Origin: a virus
Taxonomy: Duplodnaviria; Heunggongvirae; Uroviricota; Caudoviricetes
Length of the DNA: 64,000 nucleotides
Strand: one strand, 5' to 3'
IMG/VR virus record: IMGVR_UViG_3300032167_000028
Under the pieces are notes generated by a model. That model was not told the DNA's origin and ran no database searches. It saw nothing but the letters and a program-made list of their open reading frames with translations. The translations under genes and the position numbers were made by a program. Of the stretch, positions 3,361 through 30,943 are shown one piece after another. Within the stretch, counting starts at the first letter, position 1, and each line of letters starts with the position of its first letter.

Positions 3361-3362
3361 AA

Positions 3363-4172: not shown

Positions 4173-4173
4173 A

Positions 4174-8400: not shown

Positions 8401-11400
8401 AGGTTTCAGTGGAGCCATCTGGGTTGGTAACAGTAACAGTAGACTCATATTCAGATTCTTTAAAGATTACACGGTTAGAGGTGTTGTTACAGAATTCCCA
8501 GCACTCACAGTTTGGATAAATATCACGATCGAAACCAAATACATTTTCATTAGACTTGTCATCATTGAAATTGTACTTACCAACGAAAGTAGTTTCACCA
8601 GTAGTAGTGTTATTCCAGAATACTACACAAGCAAAGCCGCGAATACCCTGACGTACACGACCATCTTTTTCTTGTGCAACAGTTTTATATGGACAGGTTT
8701 CCTCATAGAAGTCAACAAGCATTACGTTGTTGGCATTTTCAGAAGAAGCATAGTCAGCTTTTAGACAAATAACTTCGCCCTCAAGACCGCCTTCAAAAAT
8801 TGGGAAACCATCAGCGGACTCGCCACTATTGGTGTAAGTGAGACCTTCCTTTAAAGAAACCTTATAGTTCTTTACTGGATAACCAGCAGAGGAAGTACCC
8901 TGAACGTCAAGCTGTACACCAGTTGCAGTGAAGTTGCGCTCTGGATGCATTTGATCAACGAAGGTAACAGACTTCTTTTTCTTCTTATCGCCCTTGTATT
9001 GTGGAAGTTCTTCGCACTCAAGGATGATATAAGGAATGGTCATTGGAAGATCCTGAATAGTTACTTCACCATTCTGCTTACTGAGAATATCATTACGCTC
9101 GTCTGCGGCAATACGATCAGCAAGAGTTGGACGATCACAAATGAAGTTATTTAATTGTTCTGCTTCATTTAGACCCTTATTATAAATACGGAGTACATAT
9201 AGGTCAAGACCACAAGAATCCGCGCCAATAGTAAGTCCAACAGGATTAACTTGGTTAAAGTTATCGCCTTCTGGATATACGGTTACGCCACACATAATAC
9301 CGTTAATGTATACATACACGAAACGATTTAGAGTACGTTGTTCAACAACGAATGTAACACGAACGCGTGTATCTTCACGGAATTGTACGGTAACAGAGGA
9401 TTGCTCAGAATTTAGAGTTGCCTGTTGAGACTTGATGACGAAGCCGCGTCCATTATCATTAGAAGAAACAACTACGCTATCATAGTCTCGGACATTATGT
9501 GTAGCAAGTTCAGCCTCAATGGTATAACCAGTAACACGAAGGTCATTAGTGTTATCAAATGGATAGAAAGGAATAGACATGCTATTACCGGGTAAGAAAC
9601 GAAGAACAGTTTGACCGTTTGCATCATCAATCCAACCATCAACATTAGACCAACCAAAACCATTAAAGGTAGCTTCAATTTCACCATAGCTCCAAGACTC
9701 TGGATTTGCCTCATTATTACTGCGGCCACTTGCATTAAAGTCAAGGACACAACTGTCAGTAATGATGGTCTTATTGAAAGTGGAAGGATTAACAGTTAGT
9801 TGAATATAAGACTTTTTCTCACCACAAGCAATTTGGAACTTTGTTGCACCAGCTGGGTAATCCTGAGTAGTCCAAACCTTTTCACCACGATCAACAGTTA
9901 GGGTTCTTGGAGTGCCATAAACTTCATCATTCTCATCAAGGATGGAAAGAGTGATTTCAGCATTCTCAGTAAATGGATCATAAACCATATAAGCAAGTGC
10001 GAGAGTTTCGCCCTGATTAACCTCTAACTTACTTGGAGTTAGCATTAGTACCGCCGCATCAGTCATTGTAGAGGAGGTATATAACATACCAAGACGTAAG
10101 GTTTCACTAGAAACAGAGGCACCATCAGATTCAGCAACAGCATAAATCTCAAAGATATGTGCACCATCTGGCTGAGCTGGAATACCAAAAGTACGGCTAA
10201 TACCAGAAGTTTCTACAACTTCAGTACCAAGCTCACGACCATCCATTACAAAGTGTACAGTCTTAGAACCTTGACCAGTAACGGTGTAAGGCATAGCAAC
10301 CGCACCACTATATAGACTCATTTCTGGTACTGTGGTAGTAACTGCTAGAGCAAGAACATTTACAGTATAAGCAAGAGTCTTGGAAGAACCTTCAGAGTTC
10401 TCAACCTTAATACGAATTGTATTTTCACCAGCAACAAGATACTTTGTAGCATCGAGTGTATAGCTGCCTTGTGGAATAGATAGAGAAGCTTTACGGACAT
10501 TGTTTACAGTAATAGTTCCAATACCAGGTCCGTCTGGATAGCTGTCATCATCAATAGAATGATAGCTAAACTTTAGAATAACTGGATCTCCTTCTGCTAC
10601 GGAAAGAACACGAGAACTGAGTTCATTTAGTAGAGAAATAGAATAGGTACTGCCACCAGAACCTGTACCGCCGCCAGTACCACCAATGATTTCAACAGAG
10701 TCGCCGACTTGTACACCATTAGCAGTTAACCAAAGTTTATTACCTTCATAAGCAAGGCCATCAACAGCGTTAGCCCCAATGAAGTCTTCAAGTTCATCAT
10801 GTAGAGCTTTTAAGTCATAGCCAATCTGACGTACTGCTCCACCAGCGGTAGTATGAGTAGTACCATCATAACCTACACGAATATCGCGTAGCTCGTAATT
10901 AGAATCATTTTCCTCACCGGTAAGAGTATCAAGAAGATTATCTACACGAGCTTCAGTAAGATCCATCTTTTCAGTTAAACCAGTGGCTGTACCTTCTACG
11001 GTTTCAACACGAGTATTAAGTGCGGCATTATCAGCTATAATAGCTTCATTTGCAGTCTTAATTTCATCTACACTGGTTTGCATTGTAGTTACTGCTTCAG
11101 TAGCCGCATCTACATTAGCTTGCATAGCCTCAACCGCGGCTACAGACTCGGCATTACTTTCTTCAACAGCAGTTACCTTGGCAACCACTTCTTCATTTGA
11201 GGCTTGTAGCGCAGCGATATCAGTATCGTGCTGATCTACACGACCAGTTAAAGCAGTTAGTTCTTCAGAAGAAGCGCCACCGCCATTTTCGCTGCCTTCA
11301 CCACCTGCTTCAAGTTGAGATTTAATACTTTCAATCTCAGTATTAATGGTCTCAATATTAGCTGCGGTAGTAATGTCCGCTTCTTTTAAGGAAGCAATAT

Positions 11401-11998
11401 CTTGTTCTGCAAGATCAACTCGGCCGGTAAGAACTAAGAGTTCCTCAGAGGTAGCTCCGCCTTCACCGCCGCCAGTTCCGCCGCTATTCTTTAAACTTTC
11501 AACTTCTTGAGAAAGAGCATTTACAGTAGTTTGTAGAGTATCTACATTACCTTGGAGAGTAGTAACTTCTCCTTGAACTCCCTCAATAGCAGTGGAAAGA
11601 ACAGCATCTTGCTCGGTTAATTTAGTAATGTCATCTTGGATTACGGCAAGTTCATCTGTATGAGCCGCAAGTAAAGCATCAACAGTTTCAAACTTACCAT
11701 TTTGTTCAGTTAAAGAATTTTCAAGACTTGAAACTCTTTTCTTTAAGGCTTCTACTTCAGCAGAGCTGGCGCCGCCTTCTCCATTATCGGGAGTGGTAGA
11801 GTCAGTGCTTACGCCAGAAGCATATGCGAGGTTACTCCAAGCAGTATTACCGTCGCCGACTTTCATCTTAACAGACCCATCTGTTAAAAATTCTAGGCCC
11901 ATTTCGCCTTTGAGAAGAACAGGGTTCTTTAAATCCCAATTCTCAGTGACGTCATGGCGTAGAACAATTCGGGTAGTTTTAACTTCTGCCATTATCAT
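5477..11998 (-). CDS. giant tail fibre / host-recognition protein (2173 aa) with HylP-type N-terminal anchor, coiled-coil repeats, BspA-like LRR region
   Basis: N-terminus TRIVLRHDVTENWDLKNPVLLKGEMGLEF...KVGDGNTAWSNLAY matches the conserved N-terminal domain of prophage hyaluronidase/tail fibres; repeated GGxSSEEL..LTGRVD coiled-coil units; LRR block NLTNMTLASQENISTLQIENTPGLDIEALILNSPKLNRVRL; no in-frame TAG. Confidence 0.9.
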   Translation of the reverse strand: MIMAEVKTTRIVLRHDVTENWDLKNPVLLKGEMGLEFLTDGSVKMKVGDGNTAWSNLAYASGVSTDSTTPDNGEGGASSAEVEALKKRVSSLENSLTEQNGKFETVDALLAAHTDELAVIQDDITKLTEQDAVLSTAIEGVQGEVTTLQGNVDTLQTTVNALSQEVESLKNSGGTGGGEGGATSEELLVLTGRVDLAEQDIASLKEADITTAANIETINTEIESIKSQLEAGGEGSENGGGASSEELTALTGRVDQHDTDIAALQASNEEVVAKVTAVEESNAESVAAVEAMQANVDAATEAVTTMQTSVDEIKTANEAIIADNAALNTRVETVEGTATGLTEKMDLTEARVDNLLDTLTGEENDSNYELRDIRVGYDGTTHTTAGGAVRQIGYDLKALHDELEDFIGANAVDGLAYEGNKLWLTANGVQVGDSVEIIGGTGGGTGSGGSTYSISLLNELSSRVLSVAEGDPVILKFSYHSIDDDSYPDGPGIGTITVNNVRKASLSIPQGSYTLDATKYLVAGENTIRIKVENSEGSSKTLAYTVNVLALAVTTTVPEMSLYSGAVAMPYTVTGQGSKTVHFVMDGRELGTEVVETSGISRTFGIPAQPDGAHIFEIYAVAESDGASVSSETLRLGMLYTSSTMTDAAVLMLTPSKLEVNQGETLALAYMVYDPFTENAEITLSILDENDEVYGTPRTLTVDRGEKVWTTQDYPAGATKFQIACGEKKSYIQLTVNPSTFNKTIITDSCVLDFNASGRSNNEANPESWSYGEIEATFNGFGWSNVDGWIDDANGQTVLRFLPGNSMSIPFYPFDNTNDLRVTGYTIEAELATHNVRDYDSVVVSSNDNGRGFVIKSQQATLNSEQSSVTVQFREDTRVRVTFVVEQRTLNRFVYVYINGIMCGVTVYPEGDNFNQVNPVGLTIGADSCGLDLYVLRIYNKGLNEAEQLNNFICDRPTLADRIAADERNDILSKQNGEVTIQDLPMTIPYIILECEELPQYKGDKKKKKSVTFVDQMHPERNFTATGVQLDVQGTSSAGYPVKNYKVSLKEGLTYTNSGESADGFPIFEGGLEGEVICLKADYASSENANNVMLVDFYEETCPYKTVAQEKDGRVRQGIRGFACVVFWNNTTTGETTFVGKYNFNDDKSNENVFGFDRDIYPNCECWEFCNNTSNRVIFKESEYESTVTVTNPDGSTETYPAWYDDFEARFPDLDDPFRDYTNFKRMTDWVVSTDRDAVDTEEEKAARLQKFKDEFEQYFVKEPCLFYYLFTEVFLMVDNRAKNLFLTTFDGDHWFPIPYDMDTAIGINNEGALVFNYDCEDTDQVNGADVFNGQHSTLWCNVRDAFGSEIKDMYTTLRSGKKFAYDVINSKMANHQATWPEVLWNEDAKKKWLSPYINQKIDHLDMLQGDKKAQRDWWLFNDFRYRDSKYQCGDANTNYITLRAYDIANITVTPYADIWPRIKYGSNVATVRGKRNNSYELECTLDKMNDTEVYIYSADRIASVGDLSPLKVGMADFAAATKLTEVIVGNGDDGYENPNLYSLSVGNNELLTLINVQNCTNPEFVNLDASGCHGLETVLAKNTKLTGINLPNGGHLHTLELPATIANLTIQNQKNLTNMTLASQENISTLQIENTPGLDIEALILNSPKLNRVRLTAVEWEATDQAALEATITKLQACGGLDASGANTAKAVVTGRVHVDSITDEFLQTINDTFPELIVVVGGTAKFFIRYFNYDRTLLYRYIAIEGDDVINPITEGFIEQPVREDTEDTRSTWRGWSELPTDIHKPYDIIARYDNIYRVRFCDANGEWKNEQWIPEGDSAVEPVNAKLMSKPTKTSTDQYDYAWSGWDRDYTYIEEPCEFLPTFNSILRDYPVYFYNESIKLAETRVFYGEKAVYPGDVSEIYKLINGEPSDYYEFTGWSPSPDTPITGTTYYYAQFAFDGYIEDDWATIIEACRTGNTDAYGLGGRKVIEYTLDGRTSTVEVEIVGKNHDNLATVDENYNGGTGKAALTFIVKNLGYERKHINEQPKEFEGQSTYNTGGWEHCDVRTWINSTMRGALPEDLRVGLRPVIKISDYGYYAKRLNEGTVDTLWIPSDRELNCEDTSYVIAGQGEPYPVYADDNSRVKEGSVGIYWTRSTGIGGQHFFRYIESAGRVGNLGGGNYAGIAFGFCI

Positions 11999-12279: not shown

Positions 12280-13248
12280 ATGAGTGCACAAGTTGCTATT
12301 ATTGTTCCTGCGTATCATGCTCATGATACAATTAAAGACTTATTAAAAACAATTGTAGCGCAAACAAAAGTAGATGTTTGTAAAACAATTCTAATTGATG
12401 ATGCAGATGAACAATCTTATGATTATTTATATGAAGATTTTCCCAGTTTAGATCTTATGATCTTGCGAAATGAAGAAAATAAAGGTCCTAGTACAGCAAG
12501 AAATAAAGGACTTGAAAAAGCTATTGCTTTAGGTATTCCTTATATCATGTTCGCGGACGCAGATGATCTATTTTATAGTAATCTTGCAGTTGAAATCTTA
12601 CTTTATACCCGTGGCAATAATGATGCCGACTTAGTTTGTAGCGGCTTCTTTGAGGAACAAGAGGAAACTTTAGTCCTTCATAATGATTATGATATCTGGC
12701 TTTTTGGTAAGATTTATAAAACTTCACTTATTAAAGAATACAATATTCGTTTTCCAGAAATGAGCGTAAATGAAGATGTATGTTTTAATCTTCATTATTG
12801 GCTTGTTAGTGGCACAAAGAATATGGTAGAAGAAGCTTTATATCTTTGGAAGAATAATCCAAATAGTATTACCAGAAAGAATAACGCCGCGTATACTTGG
12901 GAAAGCTACACTCCTCTTTGTCACAACTTAATTGTGACATATCAAAAGATCATCGAAGATAAGCGTATTTCTGAAGAAAGAATACTAAGTTCTTTTGCAA
13001 ATCGTTTAATCCGCATGTATATGGGATATAACGAATTTAGCATAACAGATGAGCCGCGTATTGATCTAAAGGGAATGATGACCGCCTTACGGTGCTGGAA
13101 TCAAGAAATATTAGAACCATATTGGGACAAACTCACACCCGAATTAATTTACGGGGCATGGAATGAAATTAGTTCTGAACCAGGACATACTTTTATTCCA
13201 AATATTGGACTTACAGAATTTTTTAAGAAAATGAGAGAGGAGCCATAA
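12280..13248 (+). CDS. family 2 glycosyltransferase (GT-A fold), soluble
   Basis: IIVPAYHAHDTIKDLLKTI...ILIDDADEQ...GPSTARNKG...FADADD motifs; AGGAGG RBS; no C-terminal TM helices (unlike GtrB). Confidence 0.85.
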   Translation: MSAQVAIIVPAYHAHDTIKDLLKTIVAQTKVDVCKTILIDDADEQSYDYLYEDFPSLDLMILRNEENKGPSTARNKGLEKAIALGIPYIMFADADDLFYSNLAVEILLYTRGNNDADLVCSGFFEEQEETLVLHNDYDIWLFGKIYKTSLIKEYNIRFPEMSVNEDVCFNLHYWLVSGTKNMVEEALYLWKNNPNSITRKNNAAYTWESYTPLCHNLIVTYQKIIEDKRISEERILSSFANRLIRMYMGYNEFSITDEPRIDLKGMMTALRCWNQEILEPYWDKLTPELIYGAWNEISSEPGHTFIPNIGLTEFFKKMREEP

Positions 13249-13267
13249 GCTCCTCTCTTTTCTTATA

Positions 13268-14587
13268 TTAATCAATTCCGCCTAAAGCAATTGCAGAACC
13301 CCAATAAGTTCCAGATCCATTAAGACACCAATACATAGTAGTACCGGACATATAACATTTTGTTCTCTGGTTACTATCTTCAGTGCAACAAACACCATAA
13401 TAAGAAGGATACCAACCTAAATAATGAGATTGCCAAGAACCTTTAATAATGTAGCCATTACAACCCCAATAATTTAAACATCCTTGTTGTCTGGTAGTTG
13501 TGGTATTATAGAAGGTATATGGATATTCTACGTGATAGTTCTTTGCATTGCCACTTAAACTTACACTAGAAGCAGTAACCTTAATACTCGAATAATATCC
13601 TGCACCACCGCTATAGCTACCACCAGGAGCAATTGTACAACTAACAGCTCCTTTATTAGTCATTGTACCAGAATAATTACCGCTGGTATTCATAAATGTT
13701 TTACCAGAAAGAACATTTCCTTGAGTTGCATTACCATAACGACCAGGAGCTGTAACACTTACAGAAGAATAATAACCTGCTCCACCACTATAAGTTCCAC
13801 CATAGGCTAAAGTACATGTAACGGCACCTTTATTCGCCATAGCTCCGGATTGATTACCACTAGTATTCATAAAGGTATAACCAGTTAAAACCTGGGCATT
13901 AGTAGCATTACCGTAACGTCCCGGAGCAGTTACTTTAACAGAATTATAGTATCCTGAAGTACCATTATAAGTTGCTCCATAGTCTAAACCACATGTAACA
14001 TCCCCTTTATTAGCCATTGTACCAGTCTGGTTTCCTGCCGTATTCATAAAGGTGTAACCTGTTAAAACTCGAGCATTTGTCGCATTACCAAAACGTCCTG
14101 GGGCAGTTACTGTAACGGAAGCATAATATCCTGCAGTGCCGCTATATGTACCACCATATGCTAAAGAACAAGTAACAGTACCCTTATTATTCATACTACC
14201 AGTTTGTGAACCAGAACTGTTCATAAAGGTTTTACCAGTAAGAACTTCCGTAGCAGTGGCATTACCAGTTAAAGATGGTGCGGTAACTGCAATTGATGCA
14301 TAATAGCCCGCAGTCCCAGTATAAGAGCCTCCAGAAGTCAAGGTACAAGTAACTGCACCCTTATTGTTCATTGTACCAGTAACCTTAGCTCCTTTAACAT
14401 ACGCGGTTTTGTCTTTTAAAATTTGTGCCGCAGTTGCGGTAGCATCGGAAGTATCAGTACCAGTAGAAATATTTGAAATAGCAGTAGCCATTTCAGCGGG
14501 AGTATATGTAGTAGTAACTCCCGCTTTATCACGAATAGCCTCTGCGATATTAGTTAATGTTGTACTTTCAATAAAAAGCTTACTCAT
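13268..14587 (-). CDS. tail fibre-like protein with five ~60-aa tandem repeats
   Basis: N-terminus MSKLFIESTTLTNIAEAIRDKAG..YTPAEMATAI typical of Firmicute prophage fibre proteins; repeats GTM(A/N)NKG(A/D)VTC.L..GG.Y.G.AGYY.S..VTAP. Confidence 0.8.
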   Translation of the reverse strand: MSKLFIESTTLTNIAEAIRDKAGVTTTYTPAEMATAISNISTGTDTSDATATAAQILKDKTAYVKGAKVTGTMNNKGAVTCTLTSGGSYTGTAGYYASIAVTAPSLTGNATATEVLTGKTFMNSSGSQTGSMNNKGTVTCSLAYGGTYSGTAGYYASVTVTAPGRFGNATNARVLTGYTFMNTAGNQTGTMANKGDVTCGLDYGATYNGTSGYYNSVKVTAPGRYGNATNAQVLTGYTFMNTSGNQSGAMANKGAVTCTLAYGGTYSGGAGYYSSVSVTAPGRYGNATQGNVLSGKTFMNTSGNYSGTMTNKGAVSCTIAPGGSYSGGAGYYSSIKVTASSVSLSGNAKNYHVEYPYTFYNTTTTRQQGCLNYWGCNGYIIKGSWQSHYLGWYPSYYGVCCTEDSNQRTKCYMSGTTMYWCLNGSGTYWGSAIALGGID

Positions 14588-14736
14588 TAGAAACGAACCT
14601 CCTCAGCATCACCAATGGCAACGAGCTCGTACTTGCCAGAGGAGCCAACTTGTAAAATTTTCCCATTGTCCGCAGTAGTTGGAACTGGGATGCCCAAATC
14701 AGTCTTTGTGATTGGAGCTGGAATAATACCTTTCAT
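14587..14736 (-). CDS. small protein (49 aa)
   Basis: MKGIIPAPITKTDLGIPVPTT...; GAGGTGAG RBS; TAATG overlap with downstream start. Confidence 0.45.
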   Translation of the reverse strand: MKGIIPAPITKTDLGIPVPTTADNGKILQVGSSGKYELVAIGDAEEVRF

Positions 14737-14751
14737 AAAATCTCACCTCAA

Positions 14752-17700
14752 TTAAGTAGTTGAGCAAATAACCCATTGCCCATTAATATAAATATAAGGA
14801 GCGCACTTAATCCATGCACCATCAACATTAACATATACTAAACAATTATGATTGCGGCCGCCCTTACGATAACCAACAGTATGTTTAATTTCACTTGGAA
14901 TATAAGTAAAACTAATGTTACTTGTTTGTGCTGTTAAATTTTGTGGAGAAGCTTTAGTTACCACATAAATAGATGCAGGATTTGTTCCATTCTTTAATAC
15001 AGATTCAAGAACTGTATAAGATGTTTTAGTTAAATTTTTACCTAATAAAGTTCCATTTACATATACATCATATGTAATTGTACCATATGAAATAGAGCCG
15101 GCTGTCCAACTAATGACTGCTTCACTGCCAGAGTTATTGCTGGTAAGATTAGAAGCACCCACAAAAATAGGAGAATAAGTAAAGCTTACAGGACTTGTCG
15201 ATGTAGATGCACCAGTAGTTATATTATGTGTTTGTACGTAAAAAGAAATTGAACTTAAATTATAAATCAAATTCTCTGCTACTAAATAATTTGTACTTGT
15301 TAAATCAGAAACGAGTAATTTATTATTTAAATAAATATCGTAAACTAAATTACCATAAGAAGTTGAACCTGCGGTCCAGGTAAGTGTAGCAGTATTAGTG
15401 CCATTTATTCTTAAATTACTTGCTCCAGTAAAAGAAGCTTCATAAGTAAAAATGACATTATTAGAAGTTGTAGTTAAAGTGCTTCCATTATCAGTATTTG
15501 CTAATCCAGTGGCATTTGCTTGAACACTAATAACAGCTGGACTTAGAGGAGCAATAACTGTTTCGGAAATAGTATAAGTACGACTAGTAGTTGTATCTAA
15601 AACAGTACCGCCAACTAAAATTGAGTAACTAATTGTACCAGTAGTATTGGTTAATGTTGCCGCAGTCCAAGATAATTGTGCTGTTGTACCACTATTACTT
15701 GCTAAAGTTAATGTAGGTGTAGATAAAACGGGTTTAGAGAAAGTTTTTACTGTACTTCCAATAGAATAAGTAACAACTGTGCCATCACTAGAACTGGAAG
15801 CATTATTATAAGTCGCTTTGACTTTAAAAACTTTTTCAATATCGTAACCCGCTTGAGAAACAATACTATAAGTACCTGTTAAAGCTGTAGTTAAGTTACC
15901 AATTGGTGTTCCAGTAGAATCATTCCATAATTGATAATATACACTACCAACACCATAACTACCTGTCGCAGCAGTCCATGTCGCAGTATAAGTACCATTA
16001 TTGTTTTGTACTATTGTGGGAGCACCCGGATTAGTTAATGCTGGAGCATGAAAGGTTACTGTTGTATTGTTGGAATAAGTTGTAAAATAACCATCTGAAC
16101 TACTTGAAGCATTGCCATAAGTGGCCCTTATTCTAAAGGTAATAGGAGTACCATATGCTGGGATACTTAATGTAGCAGATGTTCCAGTAGAACGACTAGT
16201 TAAGTAGATGTTACCAGTAACGTTTTGTACTTGATAATAAACGTTACCAGTATTATTTGTACCTGTCGCCGCAGCCCAACTAATGTCAAAGGTGCCGTTA
16301 TTATTCTAGGTAATTACAGGAGCTCCTGGTTCAGTTAAACTACCAGTATATAAGGTAGCCTAAGTTGTACTGGAAAGCATTGACAGTGTACCTGCGGTAC
16401 TACTTGAGGCATTGTTATAAGTAGCTTCTACTGCAATTGAGAATGTGCCACTACTTGGAATTGCTGCGGTATAGGTTCTACCTGTCTACCAATCAGTAGT
16501 TGTATTATAAGAACCATCGGTTTTTACTATAATAACACGATAATAAATACTACCTGTACCACCAGAAGCTGTTGCCGCGGTCCAACTTACAGTAAAGGTA
16601 TCATTGCCATTATTCGTAACAGTTGGTTTACCTGGAGCACTTAGTTCTGCCTAAATAAAAGTGTACGTAGTTGAGCTGGAAAAAGATTCAGCATAACCGT
16701 CTGCCGTAGAAGAAGCTCCACCATAGGTAGCTCGAACTTTATATTGTAAAGCTTGGCCATAAGTAGAAATTGGAAGAATAACACTTGTACTTAAACTTCG
16801 ACTGCTTAAAGCAAGTCCATCTGTTAAACTCCATAATTGATAATAAACATTACCAGTACCATAAGAGCCTGTTGCCGCAGTCCAAGATGCCGTATAAGTT
16901 CCATCACTATTCTAAACAATTGTTGGTGCTCCGGGAGCAGTTACTGTCGGTGCAGTAAAGGTTTTAGAAACAGTAGAAGACCAAGATTCTACAGAACCCT
17001 CAGAAGAAGCGGAAGCTCCATCATAAGTGGCTCTTACTTTAAATTCATATTTATATCCATAACTTGGAACCCTTAATGTTACCTAAGTAGCTGTAGACCA
17101 ATTAGACCAGTAACCACCGTTAGTTACATCCCACCATTGATAATAAACACTACCAGAACCGCCACTTCCTGTCGCTGCGGACCATCTTGCTGTGTAGGTG
17201 CCATCATAGTTCTCTGTAATGGTTGGGGTACCAGGAGCTGTTAAGGTTGCTGCATTAGTATTATATCCTAAATAAAGAGTAATTTCAGCTGAACTATCAA
17301 AAGCCGCGACCTTTGTACTAATAGGATTATCAGCACTATTTACTGCATAAGCTTTAAGATAAATATAAGAAGGAGTAGAAGCTGTAAGTAAATCAAAACC
17401 TCTTGGACAATCATCTTCATCTAAATTAATTGAAACGCCTGTTTCACTTAAACTATTAATACCATCGGGTATACCAACCGTAGAAGCATCATAATCATCG
17501 GTTTTATTCCAATAAATATTAAACCAGCTATGATAAGAAGTACCTCCGTTCAAGCCATCAATTTGAAGTTTTGAATAAGAAATACCATCTCCATTGGCTC
17601 CACCACTACTGGTATATTTATCATAATTTAAATCAGAACCGGAAATACTGCTAGAACTAACTGGACCTGTATCAGATGTGACAGTAAATTTTACGCCTTC

Positions 17701-17769
17701 ATCATAATAAAGTTCTACACCATATCCAGTAGATATTCTTGCAGTAATTATTCTTTGATTAACTGCCAT
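14752..17769 (-). CDS. tail fibre protein with multiple FN3/Ig-like repeats, containing several in-frame TAG codons (recoded)
   Basis: Start MAVNQRIITARISTGYG with GGAGG RBS. The ORF track shows no minus ORF of 60 aa or more in 15271-17082, although the repeat sequence (YTA.W.AATGS.GSG.VYYQLW) is continuous. Reading frame checked across 15270-15480 and across the TAG at 17083-17085. Confidence 0.7.
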
Positions 17770-17773
17770 CGTA

Positions 17774-18382
17774 TCAATCCTCCGGCTTTAGCCAAATAAC
17801 TCCTTCTACTGCTTCAGGCTCAGTTTCACTATAAATAAAGGTGTTAATATTACCTGTTGCGTCTGGCATAATATTATTTACGGTTGCCACTGCCGCAGTT
17901 TGAAGTGCACCACTTGTGCCACACATAATTAAAGTAATTTCTAATGTACCGGCTGGCTTAGTAGCAGTAGTAAAGGTAATACGACCATTAAAGGTTTCCC
18001 AGTCAATTGCGGCTAGTTGATTACCTTGTGTTGCAGAAGTTGGTAAAAATTCTACTACAGCCATCTCTGCGGTAATACCAGAATTAGTATAAGTATAAGT
18101 ATAGCCGCCATTTGCACTTGTCCAATCAGAAGTGGCAATACTAATTGGGCCAAAAGTAGAAATTAAATTACCAGTATTTTCATCTAATACTGCTTTTACG
18201 AAAGGAAGATTATTTACATATGTAGCACCATCACCCACTTTCATACGAGGAGCGGTATTATTAGAATCAATATTGTAAACAATAATTTCGCCCGCTTTAG
18301 GAATAAAATTAGTAGCTTTTAGCCAATTGGCTTCAACATCATTTTTACAAGAAATGCGGGCATTAAGTTGTTTCTCAGCCAT
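17774..18382 (-). CDS. tail fibre-like protein with HylP-type N-terminal anchor domain
   Basis: MAEKQLNARISCKNDVEANWLKATNFIPKAGEIIVY...MKVGDGATYVNNLPF. Confidence 0.75.
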   Translation of the reverse strand: MAEKQLNARISCKNDVEANWLKATNFIPKAGEIIVYNIDSNNTAPRMKVGDGATYVNNLPFVKAVLDENTGNLISTFGPISIATSDWTSANGGYTYTYTNSGITAEMAVVEFLPTSATQGNQLAAIDWETFNGRITFTTATKPAGTLEITLIMCGTSGALQTAAVATVNNIMPDATGNINTFIYSETEPEAVEGVIWLKPED

Positions 18383-18583
18383 AAAGTCACCCCATTATAA
18401 TAAAAAAATAAAGAGCTTTCGAAAACGAAAGCTCTGATGGAGAAATAATGTTATATTCCTCCATCAAATTATCGTTTTCAAATTTTATAGGAGTAGTGAT
18501 AAATCTTTTCATTATCACTCTATCTATATTTTAGGTAATTATTTAACGCCTAATATAAATAGTTTTTTTCCAGATAATAAAAA

Positions 18584-18638
18584 TAAGGGAGGACAAATGT
18601 CCTCCCTTGAAAAAGAGGAGGGTATTCACCCTCCTCTG
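18584..18638 (-). terminator. tandem intrinsic terminators after fibre gene
   Basis: two hairpins GGGAGGACAAATGTCCTCCC and GAGGAGGGTATTCACCCTCCTC with U-tracts on the minus strand. Confidence 0.6.
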
Positions 18639-18644
18639 ATTTTA

Positions 18645-20522
18645 TTACATTACAGTGCTAGCAGTACCGCAATTGAAGACTAGAATATCGCTTTCGGTCT
18701 GGATTAGATCGTTTACATTGCCAGTATGAGCAATAGTGGCAAGGCCGCTAATATCCTCATAAGTTGGCTGTGCACGATTAACAGCAATGATACCATTAGC
18801 CTCACTAACAGAGGTAACGAACTGCTTTGCAACAACTTCATCAGTCTTGTCAAGAGCCTCGATAGCATCGGTAACGGTCTTCTTAGTAGCAACTGGGTTA
18901 GAAGCTGCATCATAAGTACCGTTAAAGGTTAGATTATCCTGCTTAGAAGCAAGCTTGTCGATAAGACCATTGACCTGGCTCTGCTCAATGTTTGGAATAT
19001 CGGTAGCCTTTAGAGCTGCACGAGAAATAGTGATAACACCGTCTTCCTGAGAAACAGCAGTAACAAACTGCTTTTCAACAGCGGCGTCGGACTTATCTAG
19101 GCCGCCAACAGTAGTGGTGATAGCATTATCAACGTAGCTCTTGGTGGTTACCTTATTGGAAGTAGCATTGTACTTGCCTTCGAAAGCAAGATTATCCTGC
19201 TTATTTTCTTCAAGATCGTCGATCTGACCCTGCATTTTTGCATCGAGATCATCAAGATCCTTAGCAACGTCAACCTTTAGAGCATAGATGGACTCGTTGC
19301 CTAAGGTATGCCAAGCATTACCATCATAGACATACTCGTCAACGCCAAATAGAACAACGTCACCAGCTTCATAGGTGTTATCTGGATTTGGATCTTCCCA
19401 AGTGGTTGGATCAGTTGGTACAGCACCCTTGAAGTGCATTGCGCCAGTGACATCAGCCATAACTTCGTCAACATAATCCTTTAGAGCAACTGGGTTAGTG
19501 CCCTTATTGTACTCGCCAGTGAAGCCAAGTAGATCCTGCTTTGCATCAATGCGAGCAGTGAGGCCATTAACTTGAGACTCGTCGATAGTTGGGATATCTT
19601 CCTTAACTAGTGCACGCTTCTCAACTGCGATAACACCATCGGCCTGGGAAACAGAACTAATGATTTCGCCCTGATCAACAGTCTTGCCAGCATTGTTAAG
19701 AGCGTTGATAGCAGAAGTTACGGTTTCCTGAGTAGCAACCTTATTGGTGTCAGAAGGAGTGCCATCAATTGGGAGATTATCCTGCTTGGTGTCTTCTAGA
19801 TCCTGTAAAGCATCTTTAAGACCAGTTACCTTGCTCTGTGGAAGCTCTGGGATATCAGAAACTGCTAGAGCCGCACGACTTACGGAAATAACACCATCAG
19901 TCTGAGAAACAGCAGTTACGAACTTACCAGCCTAGGCCGCATCGGTCTTGTCAAGAGCCTTAATGGCGTCGGTGATCTGCTTATTAACAGTTTCCTCACC
20001 AACAAGACCTTCAAGTGCGGTTAGACGGCTGTTGATTTCGGTGAAATCAATAGTGGCAACAAGAGTATTAAAAGTTGTGTCGTTCTTAGCTGGATCGGTA
20101 GCCATTAACTTAAAGCTATAAGGATTGGCATCATCACGAACAACAGTGTAACGGGTATCGGTATCCTGAATCTCATCGTGGTCAGCGATAACTTCATCAA
20201 CGAACTCCTTGAGGAGATTGATTTCGCTAGCAGTATACTCTGGCTTGACCGCGGCCTTTGCCCAAGCATATACATCTGCAGCAAGAGCAGATACGAATTT
20301 TAGATCATTGTAATGGTCAGTGCCATTACCAACCTTCATTACGATGTTTGGAAGGTTTTGAAATTCATTATTGCTATTATTATTAGTGGTATTTGCCTTA
20401 TCGCTAGTCTCAACAGTAGCAAAGGCAACTTCGCCCATCTTTAAGATTGGGTTCTTAGAAGTCCAGTTAGCAAAACTGTCATACTTTAGTTGAATTCTTG
20501 TGTTAAGAACTTTCTCAGCCAT
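18645..20522 (-). CDS. tail fibre protein with HylP-type N-terminus and repeat region; one in-frame TAG at about 19933-19935
   Basis: ORFs 19932..20522 and 18645..19460 are in one frame; the ~150 aa between them have no other stop and continue the same repeats (KQDNL..G.....NPVATK..V..AI.ALDKTD..V.KQFVT.VS...G.I). Confidence 0.75.
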
Positions 20523-20551
20523 GTTTAAAACACCTCAAAAAGATAGTTTGT

Positions 20552-22006
20552 TTAATAATTACTAGTACCACCATAAAGGACGAGTTCTTCGCCTTCTGGA
20601 ATATAAAGGTTACTAGTGGAGATCTGATTTACACTCATGATACCAGTGGCATCAACGAAAACTTGGTTAACTTCAAGACTACTCTTAACACCACCGAGAG
20701 TAGTTTCAGAAGCAATTGGAAGAGTATAACCGCTTCCATCTCCAGAACCACCAACTGCGGAAAGTACACCAGATTCATCAAGAGTTAAACCATTACCGAT
20801 AACAGCAATAGGCGGCATAGCCGCGAGTTTATCAACATCATATTGACTTAATACTGGTATGGCCGCAATATCTTTAGTATTTTGTTCTACTAAAGCCTCA
20901 AGACCATTCCACTTATCACGCTCTGCCGCAGTGATATGAACAGTATTATTAGCAAGATGATTCTTTAAACTGCTAACTGGAATACCTGCACTAACAAGTA
21001 TACCGCCAGCTGCGATTTCAGGTAAATCACCTTCATCATAAGTTTCAACAACAGGAATATAATTAGATAGATCAACTTGAGTGTCTCCGATAAATTCAAA
21101 GGCACCATTGATAACCATATACTCATTATATTTATCAGTTTCAGACATTGGATTATTTAATACCATATAAATAGTATTAACATCCGCATCTTCTGGCGCA
21201 GGAAGTACATCAACGACTTCACGCTTTAATGTTCCCGCAGAAGCAACTGCTGTTGCAATTTTTTCTTCAACAACTTTTTCAGAAGCAGCAACTGAACCAT
21301 CTTGTAAAACAAGATTTCCAGTTAGTACGCCACCAGTTGCATCAATCTTACTAGCAAGTTCATTTTCAAGTTCTTGTGTCTTTTCAGATTGTTGCTCTGT
21401 TGTAGCTCTTAGTGCGGCAATGCTGCCGTAAATTGTATCTGCTTCCGCCGCATCTTCTTTGTTACCAATAGAAGCTGCGAGGTTATCTACTGTAGTTTGT
21501 AAACCAGTAAGTGCGGGACCAATGTCTTCTACTGTAATAGCAGAAGGCTCATACCAAGCAAGTTCTGGTTCACCATTAGTTGTGTCTACACGTGGTTCAA
21601 GGCCAGTCATCCAAGGATTGGATTCACTTACCTCAACAAGAACATGAGTTTCAGATTCTGCATCCCATTTATAGTATTTAACGCCCCAGTTCTTTAAAGA
21701 CAAAGTTTCTTTATTAAGAACTATTGTACGATTATCACCAAAAATTGCTTCTGTTCCAGAAGCAACACCAGTACCAACTTCAATTAGTTCGCCTTCGATG
21801 TTTTTGATGATATAGGCAGTGGCTTCGCCCTTTTCATCAATGAGACTTAAAATTTGACCAACATATGCGGTGGGGTTGCTTGCCGCATAATTGGCCATTT
21901 CGCCATAACTATACCATACTGCACTTGCATCAAGGGGAAAAGCATTACTGCGTCGTACAGCTCGTGGTATAGCAGTGCTAGCCACATTTTTTCTTATAGT
22001 AGCCAT
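20552..22006 (-). CDS. tail / baseplate-associated structural protein
   Basis: 484 aa, GGGGTGG RBS, position in fibre module. Confidence 0.65.
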   Translation of the reverse strand: MATIRKNVASTAIPRAVRRSNAFPLDASAVWYSYGEMANYAASNPTAYVGQILSLIDEKGEATAYIIKNIEGELIEVGTGVASGTEAIFGDNRTIVLNKETLSLKNWGVKYYKWDAESETHVLVEVSESNPWMTGLEPRVDTTNGEPELAWYEPSAITVEDIGPALTGLQTTVDNLAASIGNKEDAAEADTIYGSIAALRATTEQQSEKTQELENELASKIDATGGVLTGNLVLQDGSVAASEKVVEEKIATAVASAGTLKREVVDVLPAPEDADVNTIYMVLNNPMSETDKYNEYMVINGAFEFIGDTQVDLSNYIPVVETYDEGDLPEIAAGGILVSAGIPVSSLKNHLANNTVHITAAERDKWNGLEALVEQNTKDIAAIPVLSQYDVDKLAAMPPIAVIGNGLTLDESGVLSAVGGSGDGSGYTLPIASETTLGGVKSSLEVNQVFVDATGIMSVNQISTSNLYIPEGEELVLYGGTSNY

Positions 22007-22074
22007 TACTTACCACCCCTTATGCTAAAACTACAGCTAATGGCAATCCTAGTAGTCAACATTGCCATATCGCA

Positions 22075-22602
22075 TTATACCTCCTTTGCGGAACCACCGT
22101 AGATAATTGGAGAACCGTCGCCGATAAGTACTGTGCGATAAATAGCGGTTAAGGTACCTTCACTAACAGACATTGTATTAGTGCCCTTGAAAGACATAAT
22201 GTTGTGATAATTTAATTGAGCTACGGCCCCACTTGGTAATACAAATTCACCAGTACTCCAGTTATATGTGCCAGCACATGGAATAACAGTGATGTATTGG
22301 GTCGCTTCACCGCTGGAGGACTCGTGTGTAAGGGTAAGTGTAGTTTCTCCGGCTACGGGTGTTTCTACCATTACTGGTGTGCCTGCAACTGGAATGAAAG
22401 ATACGCTTGCTCCCTCTACAGAGGCTGGAGTGGTGAAGGAGTCGATCATTTTAGAACTACTCCAAATACGATCTTCGCAAGTGACGTTATCGTCAATAAA
22501 TGCTTTATCGGCTTTTGCCATTAGCTGACTAATATCACGAAGTGTGCTATTAATGCTTTTACCTGTTGTGTCTAGGAGAATTGGACTTGTAATCTTACCC
22601 AT
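22075..22602 (-). CDS. hypothetical structural protein
   Basis: 175 aa, AGGAGA RBS. Confidence 0.55.
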   Translation of the reverse strand: MGKITSPILLDTTGKSINSTLRDISQLMAKADKAFIDDNVTCEDRIWSSSKMIDSFTTPASVEGASVSFIPVAGTPVMVETPVAGETTLTLTHESSSGEATQYITVIPCAGTYNWSTGEFVLPSGAVAQLNYHNIMSFKGTNTMSVSEGTLTAIYRTVLIGDGSPIIYGGSAKEV

Positions 22603-22608
22603 AACTTA

Positions 22609-23025
22609 TCATTCTCCTTCATTATAAGTTATATTAAGTTTGCCGTCAACTACGCTCAAGCCAAGATCTTCAAATTCGGCTGTGAGTGTACTATGGGCTT
22701 CATAAAGATTGTTGTGGGCCTCGCTAAGTTCTGAATAAAAAGTTTCCAGAACTTCTACTTTTTCTTCAACTGCGGCCAAGTCTTCTTTGGTAGCAGCTGC
22801 AAAAATGAGGTTTGTACCATCATTAAATTTAACGACGAGTGCTCCCTCTTCATTTAAGGAAATACTTTTTACATCGGAACCTTGGATATCCAAAGGAGTT
22901 TCTATAAGGGTTCCATCTGCAAGAGTAAAAACAAGCTTGCCATCTACGTATTCTACTTTGCTTATGCCGGTGGCGGCTTGTCCTATGGTTTTCTTTAGTA
23001 GGGCATATGTAACTACATCAAACAT
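22609..23025 (-). CDS. hypothetical structural protein
   Basis: 138 aa, GGGGTG RBS. Confidence 0.55.
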   Translation of the reverse strand: MFDVVTYALLKKTIGQAATGISKVEYVDGKLVFTLADGTLIETPLDIQGSDVKSISLNEEGALVVKFNDGTNLIFAAATKEDLAAVEEKVEVLETFYSELSEAHNNLYEAHSTLTAEFEDLGLSVVDGKLNITYNEGE

Positions 23026-23031: not shown

Positions 23032-23214
23032 TCACCCCAACTTATACCAGGTCTTTTTACCATCTACCATATATACTTCAGAGGTTGGAACAATAAGGGC
23101 ACAAGTGCCTTGCTCATCATAACCATCCTTTAGTAGTTTAGGAAGATCATCCACACTATCAATTGCAAAGGTGGGGGTAATATCACTGGGGTTAGAAATC
23201 ATTCTGTAAGACAA
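23032..23214 (-). CDS. hypothetical small protein
   Basis: 60 aa, GGAGG RBS. Confidence 0.5.
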   Translation of the reverse strand: MSYRMISNPSDITPTFAIDSVDDLPKLLKDGYDEQGTCALIVPTSEVYMVDGKKTWYKLG

Positions 23215-23523
23215 AATAATTACCTCCCGGAAAATAAAAATAAGGAAAGGAAAACATAGAAGGACATCCTATCTGAAATTAAGAGAGGAAATATATAAAA
23301 GAAGAAGGAAGGTCATCAGAATTTTACGATAGGGAGGATGGAGGATGGGACGTACTACAACGGTGGGTGGCTCTTGAGGGGAGATGGCCAGCCCTGGAAG
23401 ATTGGTGCCCATACCATCCGAGATTTGTCAAATTTTTAAAATAAAATTTTCCTTTCTAAAACATAAGTGAAAATCCCCATCCACAATGAAAAGAAAAATT
23501 CCCAAACAATCAAAAAAAATAAC

Positions 23524-23557: not shown

Positions 23558-23977
23558 TTATACAATTACCCACACTCTATCTTCTTCTTCACTGTAGATT
23601 ATATTATCTTCTTGATATAACGGTAATTCTGATTCTATTAATAATCTTTCTGCCTCCAGCGGACTGACCTCTTCTTGGTTCAAAATGTCGTTGATAGTTT
23701 TGACCTGTGTTTTGAGCTCATTTACAACTGTCGAGTTTTGACCTTCTAATGGTTCAGAATTTTCCGTTGTTTTGAACTCCTCTAATGGGTCAGATTTCTT
23801 ATGTTTTGAACTGCTGGAGGGGTCACTACACTGATGTTTTGAACCATCAAGGTTCAAAACTCCCTCAGACCTTAAAAGTTCATTTTCATTTACATTTACA
23901 TTTACATTTACATTAAGGTTTTGACCGCTTTTGAACCCTTTTGACCTTTTGACCTCTTTTTGTGAATCGTTTAACAA
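23558..23977 (-). CDS. questionable ORF (low-complexity product) overlapping an iteron-like repeat array
   Basis: product has NVNVNVNVN from a (GTAAAT)n tandem, plus S-rich tracts; the DNA carries 7 or more GTTTTGAAC/GGTTCAAAAC copies. Confidence 0.3.
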   Translation of the reverse strand: MLNDSQKEVKRSKGFKSGQNLNVNVNVNVNENELLRSEGVLNLDGSKHQCSDPSSSSKHKKSDPLEEFKTTENSEPLEGQNSTVVNELKTQVKTINDILNQEEVSPLEAERLLIESELPLYQEDNIIYSEEEDRVWVIV

Positions 23978-23990
23978 ATTTGGTTCAAAA
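23690..23990. repeat. iteron-like repeat array (GTTTTGAAC / GGTTCAAAAC in both orientations, TTTTGACC x3, (ATTTAC)x4 at 23886-23914)
   Basis: direct reading of the sequence; includes the perfect inverted repeat GTTTTGAACC-ATCAA-GGTTCAAAAC near 23835. Confidence 0.7.
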
Positions 23991-23992
23991 CC

Positions 23993-24397
23993 CTATTGAG
24001 ACTTTTGAGCTTCACTGATACGCCGCTTTACAGTGCTTTCGCTAATATTAAGCATGCCCGCAATTTCCTTGTATGTCATACCTTGATTCTTCATATTAAG
24101 AATTGTTTCAGCATCAACAGAAGTGCGGGGTCTGCCGCCTTTTTTGCCATTAGCGATTTGTTTATCTCGACGTTCTTGTGCATGAGATATGGCGGTCCGC
24201 ACCTGCTCGAATCCATACAACCATGCGGGGTTGGATTCATCGGGAAGTAGCCCATAGCATCCATATTCCATAATGGACATTAGATAATCATATGCCGCTT
24301 CCTTACCTGCAAATCTTTCTACATTCTGAATAGTTTTGAGGAAACTTTCGTAAAAAACAAATGCACTATCATTTGTCATTCTGCTCACGCTCCTCAA
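23993..24397 (-). CDS. DNA-binding protein with C-terminal HTH (resolvase/sigma-region-4-like)
   Basis: C-terminus GRPRTSVDAETILNMKNQGMTYKEIAGMLNISESTVKRRI. Confidence 0.7.
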   Translation of the reverse strand: MRSVSRMTNDSAFVFYESFLKTIQNVERFAGKEAAYDYLMSIMEYGCYGLLPDESNPAWLYGFEQVRTAISHAQERRDKQIANGKKGGRPRTSVDAETILNMKNQGMTYKEIAGMLNISESTVKRRISEAQKSQ

Positions 24398-28590: not shown

Positions 28591-28609
28591 TTAGATGTTC
28601 AACATCTAA
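28591..28609. repeat. 19-bp palindrome (copy 4) centred between divergent promoters
   Basis: minus -35 at 28576-28581 and plus -35 at 28619-28624, each about 10 bp from the palindrome. Confidence 0.95.
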
Positions 28610-28618
28610 AAATGGTTA

Positions 28619-28647
28619 TTGACTTTTTGTTTTAGGTGTGCTATACT
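28619..28647 (+). promoter_or_regulatory. sigma70-type promoter TTGACT-17-TATACT
   Basis: drives exonuclease gene. Confidence 0.7.
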
Positions 28648-28677
28648 ATCAGTACCAACTGAAAGGAAGTGCATAAA

Positions 28678-29436
28678 ATGAATGTCGTTGTATTCGACAC
28701 CGAAACCGCAAACATGCAGAAACGTTTCTGCTATAATGTCGGGTATGTTATCCTTGACATTTCTACTGGTGAAAAGCTGGTGGAGCGTGACTTTGTAGTG
28801 GAGCAGATTTGGCATAATGTTGAACTGTTTGCAACTGCCTATTATGCGGACAAGCGTGAACTGTATGTCAAGAAAATGCGTTCGCGTAAAGCGGTCATGG
28901 ATAAATGGGGTTATATCATGCAAACTATGATGCGTGATTTCAAGCGGCATGAAGTGGTTTGTGCGTATGCGTATAACTCTCCATTCGATGACAAAGTGTT
29001 TACCTTTAACTGTGATTGGTTCAAAACTCAGAATCCTTTTGACACGATTCCCATTTACGATCTTATGGGACTTGCCTGCGACTGTATCACGCAGTATGAT
29101 ACCTATCATAGTTACTGCGAAGAACACGAGTTTTTCACCGAATCCGAAACCGAGTATTCCATCACCGCAGAAACAGTCTATAGGTTCATCACCGATGACC
29201 CGACTTTTGTAGAAGAACACACCGCCCTTGCGGATGCACGAATTGAAGCAACCATTTTGATGCATTGTCTGAATATGGGGGCATATCCTGACCGAGAATA
29301 TCCGGTTGTGCATCAGAAACGAGTGATTGAACGTCCGTTCAAAGTGACCGTTGATGGACAAGTTGTCGCAGAAGGAAAGTACATCAAGAAGTGGCGGCGA
29401 GGGGACATTGTTAAATATACGACAAAGAACGGATAA
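28678..29436 (+). CDS. DnaQ-like (DEDD) 3'-5' exonuclease
   Basis: MNVVVFDTETANMQ (Exo I motif), 252 aa. Confidence 0.7.
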   Translation: MNVVVFDTETANMQKRFCYNVGYVILDISTGEKLVERDFVVEQIWHNVELFATAYYADKRELYVKKMRSRKAVMDKWGYIMQTMMRDFKRHEVVCAYAYNSPFDDKVFTFNCDWFKTQNPFDTIPIYDLMGLACDCITQYDTYHSYCEEHEFFTESETEYSITAETVYRFITDDPTFVEEHTALADARIEATILMHCLNMGAYPDREYPVVHQKRVIERPFKVTVDGQVVAEGKYIKKWRRGDIVKYTTKNG

Positions 29437-29453
29437 CATCCGTTCTTTCTTTA
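29426..29453 (+). terminator. intrinsic terminator
   Basis: AGAACGGAT-AAC-ATCCGTTCT + TTCTTTAT. Confidence 0.6.
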
Positions 29454-30087: not shown

Positions 30088-30155
30088 GTTGTTCGCTCCT
30101 TTTCTTTTTGTGATTATATTCTATCATAAAAAAGAGAATTTGTCAACAAATACTA

Positions 30156-30174
30156 TTAGATGTTCAACATCTAA
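30156..30174. repeat. 19-bp palindrome (copy 6)
   Basis: exact; minus -35 TGTCAA 30141-30146. Confidence 0.95.
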
Positions 30175-30214
30175 AAATCTTTGAAAATAAAATAAAATAA
30201 TTTCAAAAAACCTA

Positions 30215-30243
30215 TTGACAAAAGTGGCAACATAGTATATACT
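30215..30243 (+). promoter_or_regulatory. sigma70-type promoter TTGACA-17-TATACT
   Basis: upstream of CDS 30292. Confidence 0.65.
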
Positions 30244-30291
30244 ATAATTGTTCCAAGGAACAAAACAAATAAAAGAAAAGAGGAAACAAAC

Positions 30292-30879: not shown

Positions 30880-30901
30880 CCCCTCTTTCTTTTGCTGGAG
30901 G

Positions 30902-30920
30902 TTAGATGTTGAACATCTAA
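30902..30920. repeat. 19-bp palindrome (copy 7, G centre)
   Basis: exact; GCTGGAGG at 30893-30900 abuts it. Confidence 0.95.
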
Positions 30921-30943
30921 TAATTAGAAATGAAAAAGAGGTC

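Follow-up and report, generated by a model that had tools for sequence, protein, structure and literature searches.

The 64,000-nucleotide stretch of phage DNA in IMG/VR record IMGVR_UViG_3300032167_000028 (hereafter the window) carries, on its minus strand, two genes of a tail-fibre module, here called gene 1 (14752–17769) and gene 2 (18645–20522), whose only internal stop codons are TAG. A first-pass annotation had proposed that TAG is a sense codon in both, as in genetic code 15, and that its use in some fibre genes only could make those fibres dependent on suppressor level or could mark them as recent acquisitions from a recoded relative. The sense-codon proposal is upheld here. The frames are intact and under selection, TAG is exchanged with CAA and CAG between strains and its positions turn over, and it occurs neither as a terminator nor in the non-structural genes. 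We consider it quite likely that the late genes of this phage use code 15, with TAG as a glutamine-type sense codon, and that its uneven distribution among the fibre genes is due to mutation and codon bias. The mechanism, TAG as glutamine in late phage genes, is already known, and the presence of TAG in any one fibre gene is a fast-changing, strain-specific accident and no designed switch.

Reading frames of genes 1 and 2

Read on the minus strand from position 17769, gene 1 is a single frame of 1005 codons that ends in TAA at 14752–14754 and contains six TAG codons as its only internal stops, with no TAA, TGA or frameshift. The alternative frames contain 61 and 121 stops, so an open frame of this length is not due to chance. 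Gene 2 is likewise one frame, of 625 codons, terminated by TAA and interrupted only by the TAG at codon 197. Frame-by-frame translation thus agrees with the earlier view that the breaks are TAG only and that both are real, single-frame genes of the fibre module; the CTA at 17083–17085 had been correctly read as a minus-strand TAG and is codon 229 of gene 1, and the one TAG placed near 19933 among repeats in gene 2 lies at 19932–19934. The first-pass annotation also reported no open reading frame (ORF) of 60 or more amino acids across 15271–17082. This is true of the minus strand, because the TAG-bounded pieces of gene 1 are short (56, 86, 54, 41 and 17 codons) and codons 465–833 of this gene, which is very AT-rich at third codon positions, lack any ATG, GTG or TTG; it is not true of the plus strand, where a 79-amino-acid ORF lies at 16837–17076. 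The two genes and their TAG codons are as follows, with the codons found in related lineages (L001, L015 and so on).

Gene 1, 14752–17769, minus strand: beta domain at the N-terminus, about eight FN3/Ig-like domains, small domain at the C-terminus; TAG as an in-frame sense codon at six positions
TAG codon 229 of gene 1, 17083–17085, minus strand: TAG in L015, CAA in L020, TCA in L001 and L021
TAG codon 286 of gene 1, 16912–16914, minus strand: TAG in L001, CAA in L015, L020 and L021; within the repeats, in register with codon 488 and with a CAA of repeat 5
TAG codon 373 of gene 1, 16651–16653, minus strand: TAG in L001, L015 and L021, GCG in L020
TAG codon 428 of gene 1, 16486–16488, minus strand: CAG in L001 and L021, CAA in L020, TAG in L015
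TAG codon 470 of gene 1, 16360–16362, minus strand: TAG in L001 and L015, GAA in L020, ACA in L021
TAG codon 488 of gene 1, 16306–16308, minus strand: CAA in L001 and L020, TAG in L015 and L021
Gene 2, 18645–20522, minus strand: tail-fibre-like, 625 codons; Mtd_N-like N-terminal anchor, coiled or repeat shaft motifs; one in-frame TAG
TAG codon 197 of gene 2, 19932–19934, minus strand: very recent G-to-T change from GAG

Both genes are intact and under purifying selection, downstream of the TAGs as well as upstream, judging from their divergence from a relative found in five samples (L001–L005) that is collinear with the window over both genes, without indels and at about 91.5% identity. Against L001 the ratio of nonsynonymous to synonymous substitution rates (dN/dS) of gene 1 is 0.135, and it lies between 0.07 and 0.23 in each of the eight segments before, between and after the TAGs; a wrong-frame control gave 1.43. 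The corresponding values for gene 2 are 0.12 before its TAG and 0.15 after it. Four independent ENA assemblies, 99.98–100% identical to the window, have the same six TAGs in gene 1, so these are not assembly errors, and an identical 1005-amino-acid product with Q at the TAGs is already present in a public protein collection (P0236).

The gene 1 product is a string of FN3/Ig-like domains as predicted by an AlphaFold model, which is all-beta with a mean predicted local distance difference test score of 78 and a poorly resolved N-terminal beta region, and for which Foldseek returned the FN3/Ig arrays of titin, contactin and fibronectin; the FN3-like repeats reported earlier are in agreement with this. 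Its family is narrow (21 proteins). It is placed in the fibre module by its position, and its N-terminus shows 13% identity to that of the neighbouring 2173-amino-acid giant fibre, does not share the anchor described below and has no PHROG match. Sequence searches with both genes against PDB chains gave no matches.

Gene 2 has more than 2700 homologues, mostly full length. A tblastn search with it against 50,697 phage records gave no match. Its TAG sits in a motif repeated three times, ...LDK(T/S)D..V.KQFVTAVS..DG.I.V.R..L, at a site where homologues differ (G 59, V 27, A 8, D 7 and E 6 among 120 aligned homologues). L001 and L015 have GAG at this codon, L014 and L017 have GTA, and no homologue has TAG there. 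Three near-identical ENA assemblies cover the site; two of them (L023 and L025) have TAG, and L022 has GAG even though it differs from the window at only 2 of 11,878 bases. The gene 2 TAG is therefore a segregating G-to-T single-nucleotide polymorphism (SNP), GAG/TAG, among assemblies at least 99.98% identical.

Recoding of the late genes and the meaning of TAG

The strongest evidence for genome-wide recoding of the late genes is the tape-measure frame, which begins at position 59332 and stays open through 4040 codons, with 64 TAGs but neither TAA nor TGA; gene callers set to the standard code break it up into dozens of small ORFs. Identical contigs from JGI and ENA lengthen the window by 9.7 kb to the left and 7.6 kb to the right, to a total of 81 kb, and exact-pattern scans of IMG/VR and the JGI metagenome collection with the flank end gave no matches. 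The virion genes together contain 86 TAGs, and the whole virion module is recoded, probably to genetic code 15, the late virion genes being those affected. The other recoded virion genes of this region, several tail genes among them, include the following.

Portal gene, 49504–51054, plus strand: two in-frame TAGs
Further recoded virion genes: 54632–55075, 55330–56271, 56747–57517 and 58511–59326
Tape measure (start), 59332–64000, plus strand: extends 7.5 kb past the window (L010); PhageMin_Tail Pfam match on a fragment

The non-structural genes (25–45 kb, 294–4548 and the left flank) have no TAG among 216 glutamine-type codons, and the 33 of them for which terminators were recorded end in TAA (20) or TGA (13). 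In no gene examined is TAG the terminator; all end in TAA or TGA. The terminase gene TerL is free of TAG from its likely start. In a few genes TAGs lie two to five codons ahead of TAA and their reading is ambiguous; two such cases, codon 141 of 143 in the minus-strand gene at 869–1300 and codon 217 of 219 in L020 10183–10839, have TAG two codons ahead of the TAA terminator and may be former TAG terminators that are now read through to the nearby TAA.

The best-supported meaning of TAG, from comparison of aligned codons, is glutamine. An alignment of the window with six related lineages (L001, L014, L015, L017, L020 and L021) has 21 columns that contain TAG, 20 of them polymorphic. CAA or CAG occurs in another strain in 12 of the 20, GAA or GAG only (with or without a further codon) in five, and Ala, Gly or Pro codons in the remaining three; codons for Tyr, Lys, Trp and Leu occur in none of the 21 columns. 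It is the pairing with CAA and CAG, together with column 10 of the FN3 repeats of gene 1, which reads TAG, TAG and CAA in repeats 2, 4 and 5, that makes glutamine the favoured assignment.

Because no tRNA with a CUA anticodon, no release factor and no synthetase was found in the window and its 17 kb of flanks, which are parts of an incomplete genome, the decoding agent is a presumed one. The tRNA scan used ARAGORN, Rfam (gathering and E-value modes) and a custom search for CUA and UUA anticodon arms, over the window and the 9.7-kb and 7.6-kb flanks; L018 and L019, relatives reached leftward via a YqeY protein, also have no CUA tRNA. Suppressors were detected in only 40% of TAG-recoded genomes by Borges et al. 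(10.1101/2021.08.26.457843). The window encodes tRNA-Lys(UUU) and tRNA-Leu(CAA), and the left flank encodes tRNA-Glu(CUC), tRNA-Ile(UAU), a 95-nucleotide Leu(UAG)-like tRNA and tRNA-Asn(GUU) with a 44-nucleotide insertion. The 95-nucleotide tRNA (L006 19021–19115, same genome, left flank) is left untyped by ARAGORN and has about 22 extra nucleotides after the anticodon arm; as a candidate amber suppressor it was rejected, its loop CUUAGAA giving the anticodon UAG and a Leu-like identity. L019, whose YqeY protein is 98% identical, has at 3230–3304 a canonical-looking 75-nucleotide tRNA with the loop CUUUAAA and the ochre-type anticodon UUA, in the slot occupied here by tRNA-Glu(CUC) (L006 14845–14921); it could read UAA and, by wobble, UAG.

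Several tRNAs of this clade that Rfam found and ARAGORN missed carry insertions (L006 15438–15552, in the same genome about 4.6 kb left of the window; L019 3656–3767; L018 233–344). The insertions are 41–44 nucleotides long, and their removal restores perfect anticodon arms, GCGGG-CUGUUAA-CCCGC for Asn(GUU) and ACGGG-CUGUCAA-CCCGU for Asp(GUC). They have a common hairpin and the motif GUGUCUGCAAUGA, lie within the 5' strand of the anticodon stem, and may be a small intron-like element. Adjoining the tRNA cluster (L006 20291 onward, left flank) is a gene for a GatB/YqeY-domain protein with homologues in related phage contigs and in Lachnospiraceae; should the host make its Gln-tRNA by transamidation, this protein could be relevant to that step.

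Distribution of TAG among the fibre genes

The genes near genes 1 and 2 that enter the comparison are listed here. An anchor of about 70 amino acids at the N-terminus is common to gene 2, the 202-amino-acid gene and the giant fibre (32–41% identity over the N-termini); it matches phrog_19976 and, weakly and with scores under the curated Pfam cut-off, PF18454 (Mtd_N). The paralogy assumed for the fibre genes therefore holds for these three, but not for gene 1 or the 439-amino-acid gene, both of which are without the anchor.

Giant fibre, 2173 amino acids, 5477–11998, minus strand: shared N-terminal anchor, C-terminal DUF6273; no TAG among 63 glutamine-type codons in this strain
439-amino-acid fibre-module gene, 13268–14587, minus strand: TAG-free here (codon 232 is CAG); relatives have TAG at codon 232
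202-amino-acid fibre-anchor paralogue, 17774–18382, minus strand: TAG-free; terminator TGA
484-amino-acid fibre-module gene, 20552–22006, minus strand: TAG-free here; two or three TAGs in L014 and L015
126-amino-acid gene, 23032–23412, minus strand: TAG codon 48 (23269–23271), kept in all five lineages compared

Counted under code 15, gene 1 has six TAGs, gene 2 one, and the giant fibre and the 439-amino-acid gene none, and the last two are indeed TAG-free in this strain, as first noted, though some relatives carry TAGs in them. Expressed as TAG/(TAG+CAA+CAG), the TAG share is 6/23 in gene 1, 1/25 in gene 2, 0/10 in the 439-amino-acid gene, 0/63 in the giant fibre and 64/240 in the tape measure. 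Between gene 1 and the giant fibre the proposed difference is real (Fisher P=2e-4), between gene 2 and the giant fibre it does not hold (P=0.28), and gene 1 does not differ from the tape measure (P=1.0). TAG share follows the preference for A-ending codons: it is 2/78 in the low class of genes, which prefer G-ending Lys and Glu codons (capsid, tube and gene 2), 10/145 in the middle class and 74/307 in the high class. Glutamine-type codons are CAA 17, CAG 0 and TAG 6 in gene 1, CAA 3, CAG 21 and TAG 1 in gene 2, and CAA 154, CAG 22 and TAG 64 in the tape measure; in the A-ending genes CAG is nearly gone and TAG is commoner than CAG. TAG appears, then, to behave as an AT-rich, non-preferred synonym of CAG. 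GC content and GC content at third codon positions (GC3) are 0.36 and 0.16 in gene 1, 0.44 and 0.38 in gene 2, and 0.41 and 0.27 in the giant fibre, where 41% of Gln codons are CAG. In the comparison of codon usage and GC3 suggested by the first-pass annotation, TAG share follows A-ending bias in general, and the giant fibre falls below expectation.

The TAGs also come and go between strains. Codon 232 of the 439-amino-acid gene is TAG in L001 and L015 and CAG in the window; homologues of the giant fibre have two TAGs in L014, one in L020 and three in L021; and homologues of gene 1 have three to five TAGs at partly different sites. The gene 1 family has three to six TAGs in all five lineages, codon 373 being common to four of them, and the gene 2 family has none anywhere except in this strain. 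Four of nine window TAGs are changed in L001, versus 13 of 87 CAA and CAG codons (P ~0.05). The fibre module itself is shuffled among relatives, L014 having different genes in the gene 1 and 439-amino-acid slots and L017, L020 and L021 being rearranged; in L001–L003 the giant fibre, like its neighbours, keeps its synteny, with about 93.5% identity. The choice of TAG at a given codon of a given fibre gene is most readily seen as a labile, strain-specific state.

The simplest reading of these patterns is mutational turnover, with TAG tolerated as a Gln codon and filtered by the codon bias of each gene. A suppressor tRNA would become available during infection and decode TAG, and TAG-bearing late genes would be completed only after the code switch, as in the model of Borges et al. 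A balance of mutation and selection would set the uneven distribution among the fibre genes, TAG building up where A-ending codons are preferred and CAG is almost gone (tape measure, gene 1 and 56747–57517) and being avoided in genes that prefer CAG, AAG and GAG (capsid, tube and gene 2). Certain observations weigh against this explanation, in addition to the missing CUA tRNA, release factor and synthetase. Even with its intermediate bias, the giant fibre would be expected to have more than 0/63, since the other late genes pooled have 22/227 (P(0 of 63) ~0.002) and genes of similar bias have TAG shares of about 6–12%. The gene 1 TAGs all lie within codons 229–488 (6/9 versus 0/14, P=8e-4), for which codon bias alone is insufficient; recent duplication of repeats was rejected as their origin, as the FN3 repeats are 49–59% identical in DNA and only one column has TAG twice. 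A mosaic history, or codon selection acting more strongly on the giant fibre, could account for the giant fibre count and the clustering in gene 1. Finally, glutamine is not proven at every site, as the five columns with Glu codons only include the gene 2 site, which pairs with Glu or Val and never with Gln.

Were the TAGs true stops, the genes would be pseudogenes, amber mutants or assembly errors that yield N-terminal fragments only. The gene 2 TAG, one base from GAG and unique to this population, would on its own resemble a fresh nonsense mutation, but the low dN/dS downstream of every TAG, the lack of indels in 3018 and 1878 bases at 8.5% divergence, the identity of the TAGs in independent assemblies, the 64 TAGs in an otherwise open 12-kb tape-measure frame and the alignment of TAG with Gln codons make this extremely improbable in general, and for gene 1 it is already refuted. 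That TAG is sense but specifies another residue (Glu or pyrrolysine, for example), or that the tRNA reading it has an anticodon other than CUA, such as the UUA found in L019, is very unlikely. The Glu-only columns, the failure to find a CUA tRNA in 81 kb and the canonical look of the L019 tRNA in a tRNA-Glu(CUC) slot are in its favour. However, CAA or CAG is present in most of the polymorphic columns though Gln is a rare residue, and the most frequent partner is CAA, two steps from TAG, which synonymous drift along CAA-CAG-TAG would predict; TAA, the main terminator here, would be read by a UUA anticodon too, and pyrrolysine is rejected since TAG never pairs with Lys codons. Programmed readthrough giving two isoforms finds no conserved stop at a fixed site, the gene 2 TAG being a SNP and the gene 1 TAGs being swapped with Gln codons.

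The uneven distribution itself invites other accounts. Some fibres might be deliberately suppressor-dependent through TAG and others not, so that the receptor-binding repertoire or stoichiometry shifts with the code-switch state; the significant difference between gene 1 and the giant fibre, the persistence of TAGs in the gene 1 family and the report by Borges et al. of a few gene families with significant TAG preference fit this idea. We nevertheless regard it as decidedly improbable: a stable division into suppressor-dependent and suppressor-independent fibres, as first suggested, is not supported in view of the TAGs that the TAG-free genes carry in sister strains (one to three in giant-fibre homologues) and of the gene 2 TAG, a SNP missing from all relatives, and TAG density tracks codon-bias class. 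The essential, single-copy tape measure and portal are also recoded, and as no virion would form without suppression, a gate specific to the fibres has nothing to act on. It is just as doubtful that TAG density is a heritable, gene-family-specific property that tunes fibre dose through suppressor availability after the code switch, a pattern of which would be the always TAG-rich gene 1 family, the always TAG-poor gene 2 family and the giant fibre below expectation; the suppressor might then be non-canonical, because no CUA tRNA was found and UUA-anticodon and insertion-bearing tRNAs occur in the clade. A mosaic origin would make the TAG-bearing fibres recent arrivals from a recoded phage, or else make the TAG-free giant fibre a recent arrival from a standard-code phage, still to build up TAGs of its own. 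Such an origin is unlikely, though the heterogeneous GC and GC3 of the three genes, the visible shuffling of the module and the confinement of the gene 1 TAGs would agree with it. Its first version, also put forward in the first-pass annotation, is unnecessary, as the entire resident virion module is heavily recoded; the TAG-bearing genes look native, gene 1 being equal to the tape measure in TAG share and codon bias, and if any gene stands out in composition it is the giant fibre. The synteny and identity of the giant fibre in L001–L003 in turn mean that, measured against the divergence of the strains, a transfer would not be recent. We conclude that the presence or absence of TAG in single fibre genes should not be read as regulation without population data. 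With mutation and codon bias as the preferred account, the window offers a small-scale view of the gain and loss of sense TAG, in which CAG, CAA and GAG interchange with TAG between strains and one change has been caught as a SNP.

Relation to known recoded phages and other features

The phage is a large SPbeta-like siphophage from gut-type metagenomes, of which at least 81 kb is seen (relatives are on contigs of about 175 kb), and its host is probably a Firmicute. Its virion genes include homologues of YonD, YonB, YomW, the YomU tube protein and PhageMin_Tail; a nucleotide search with 13000–23000 against the 50,697 phage records gave no matches. Code 15 has been described in late genes of gut phages (Borges et al. 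2021, 10.1101/2021.08.26.457843), and proteomics has proved that TAG is read as Gln in crAss-like phages (Peters et al., PMC9523058). Like the phages of Borges et al., this one has TAG aligned with Gln, concentrated in structural and late genes, in some genes only and absent from early and replication genes, with TAA as the dominant terminator and low GC; unlike them it belongs to another lineage, with the SPbeta-like YonB, YonD, YomU and YomW virion proteins, and no suppressor tRNA, RF2 or synthetase was seen in its 81 kb. The known class of TAG-recoded phages thereby gains a lineage that is SPbeta-like and probably infects Firmicutes, and in this phage the genes at 14752–17769 and 18645–20522 and about ten other virion genes, including the 4040-codon tape measure, need translation table 15 in annotation if they are not to fragment.

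Babkin et al. (2023, PMC10607447) describe TAG in the genes for TerL, the tape measure, the portal and a putative tail fibre of phage phAss-1 (proposed Phassvirus group, GenBank OQ749652). Within the phage collection, the portal studied here has its best E-value with that of phAss-1 (E=6e-45, 28% identity), and phAss-1 resembles this phage in being a siphophage-type gut genome, of about 136 kb, with many tRNA genes and a suspected Clostridia-type host; the similarity is distant, at the protein level only and without a nucleotide match. It differs in having three tRNA-Sup(CTA) genes, where none was found in 81 kb here, and in having TAG in TerL.

Lou et al. (2023, 10.1101/2023.08.07.552389) found in-frame TAG content to shift within years, mostly through synonymous substitutions in structural genes. 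This phage is similar in its short-time gain and loss of TAG, mostly synonymous and in structural genes, with the recoded genes faster-evolving; the phages of that study were those of Bacteroides and others, whereas here the turnover is between strains, plus one GAG/TAG SNP. A recoded tail gene in that study adjoins a recoded reverse transcriptase of a diversity-generating retroelement (DGR). L021, whose gene 1 homologue is 57% identical, has a counterpart at 7661–8863, a reverse transcriptase gene (RVT_1) with eight in-frame TAGs among Mtd_N-type fibre genes, which is likely a DGR. Unlike the case of Lou et al., no reverse transcriptase was found in the 81 kb of this genome, and a DGR was rejected as the source of variation here.

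Some further genes of the window may be mentioned. A 273-amino-acid sigma-70 region-4/helix-turn-helix-like gene at the head of the minus-strand late block (23558–24379) has a TAG at codon 129 (23993–23995) that, in contrast to the fibre TAGs, is conserved in the window, L001 and L002. A family-2 glycosyltransferase gene (12280–13248) is on the plus strand amid the minus-strand genes of the fibre module, a position kept in relatives. Between about 28000 and 45000, where local GC is higher (0.42–0.47), long ORFs are present on both strands at once in many places, for example 28606–29439 (minus) and 28669–29436 (plus), 30124–31056 (minus) and 30292–30879 (plus), and 38109–38861 (plus) and 38220–38870 (minus). 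The minus-strand gene at 1381–2457 encodes a short (358 amino acids), divergent adenylosuccinate-synthetase-like protein that matches phrog_1211 (PurZ-type family, E=2e-33) and PF00709 and scores far under the NCBIfam PurA cut-offs; with Metallophos and DUF5662 genes nearby, it is a possible gene of the 2-aminoadenine (Z-base) pathway.

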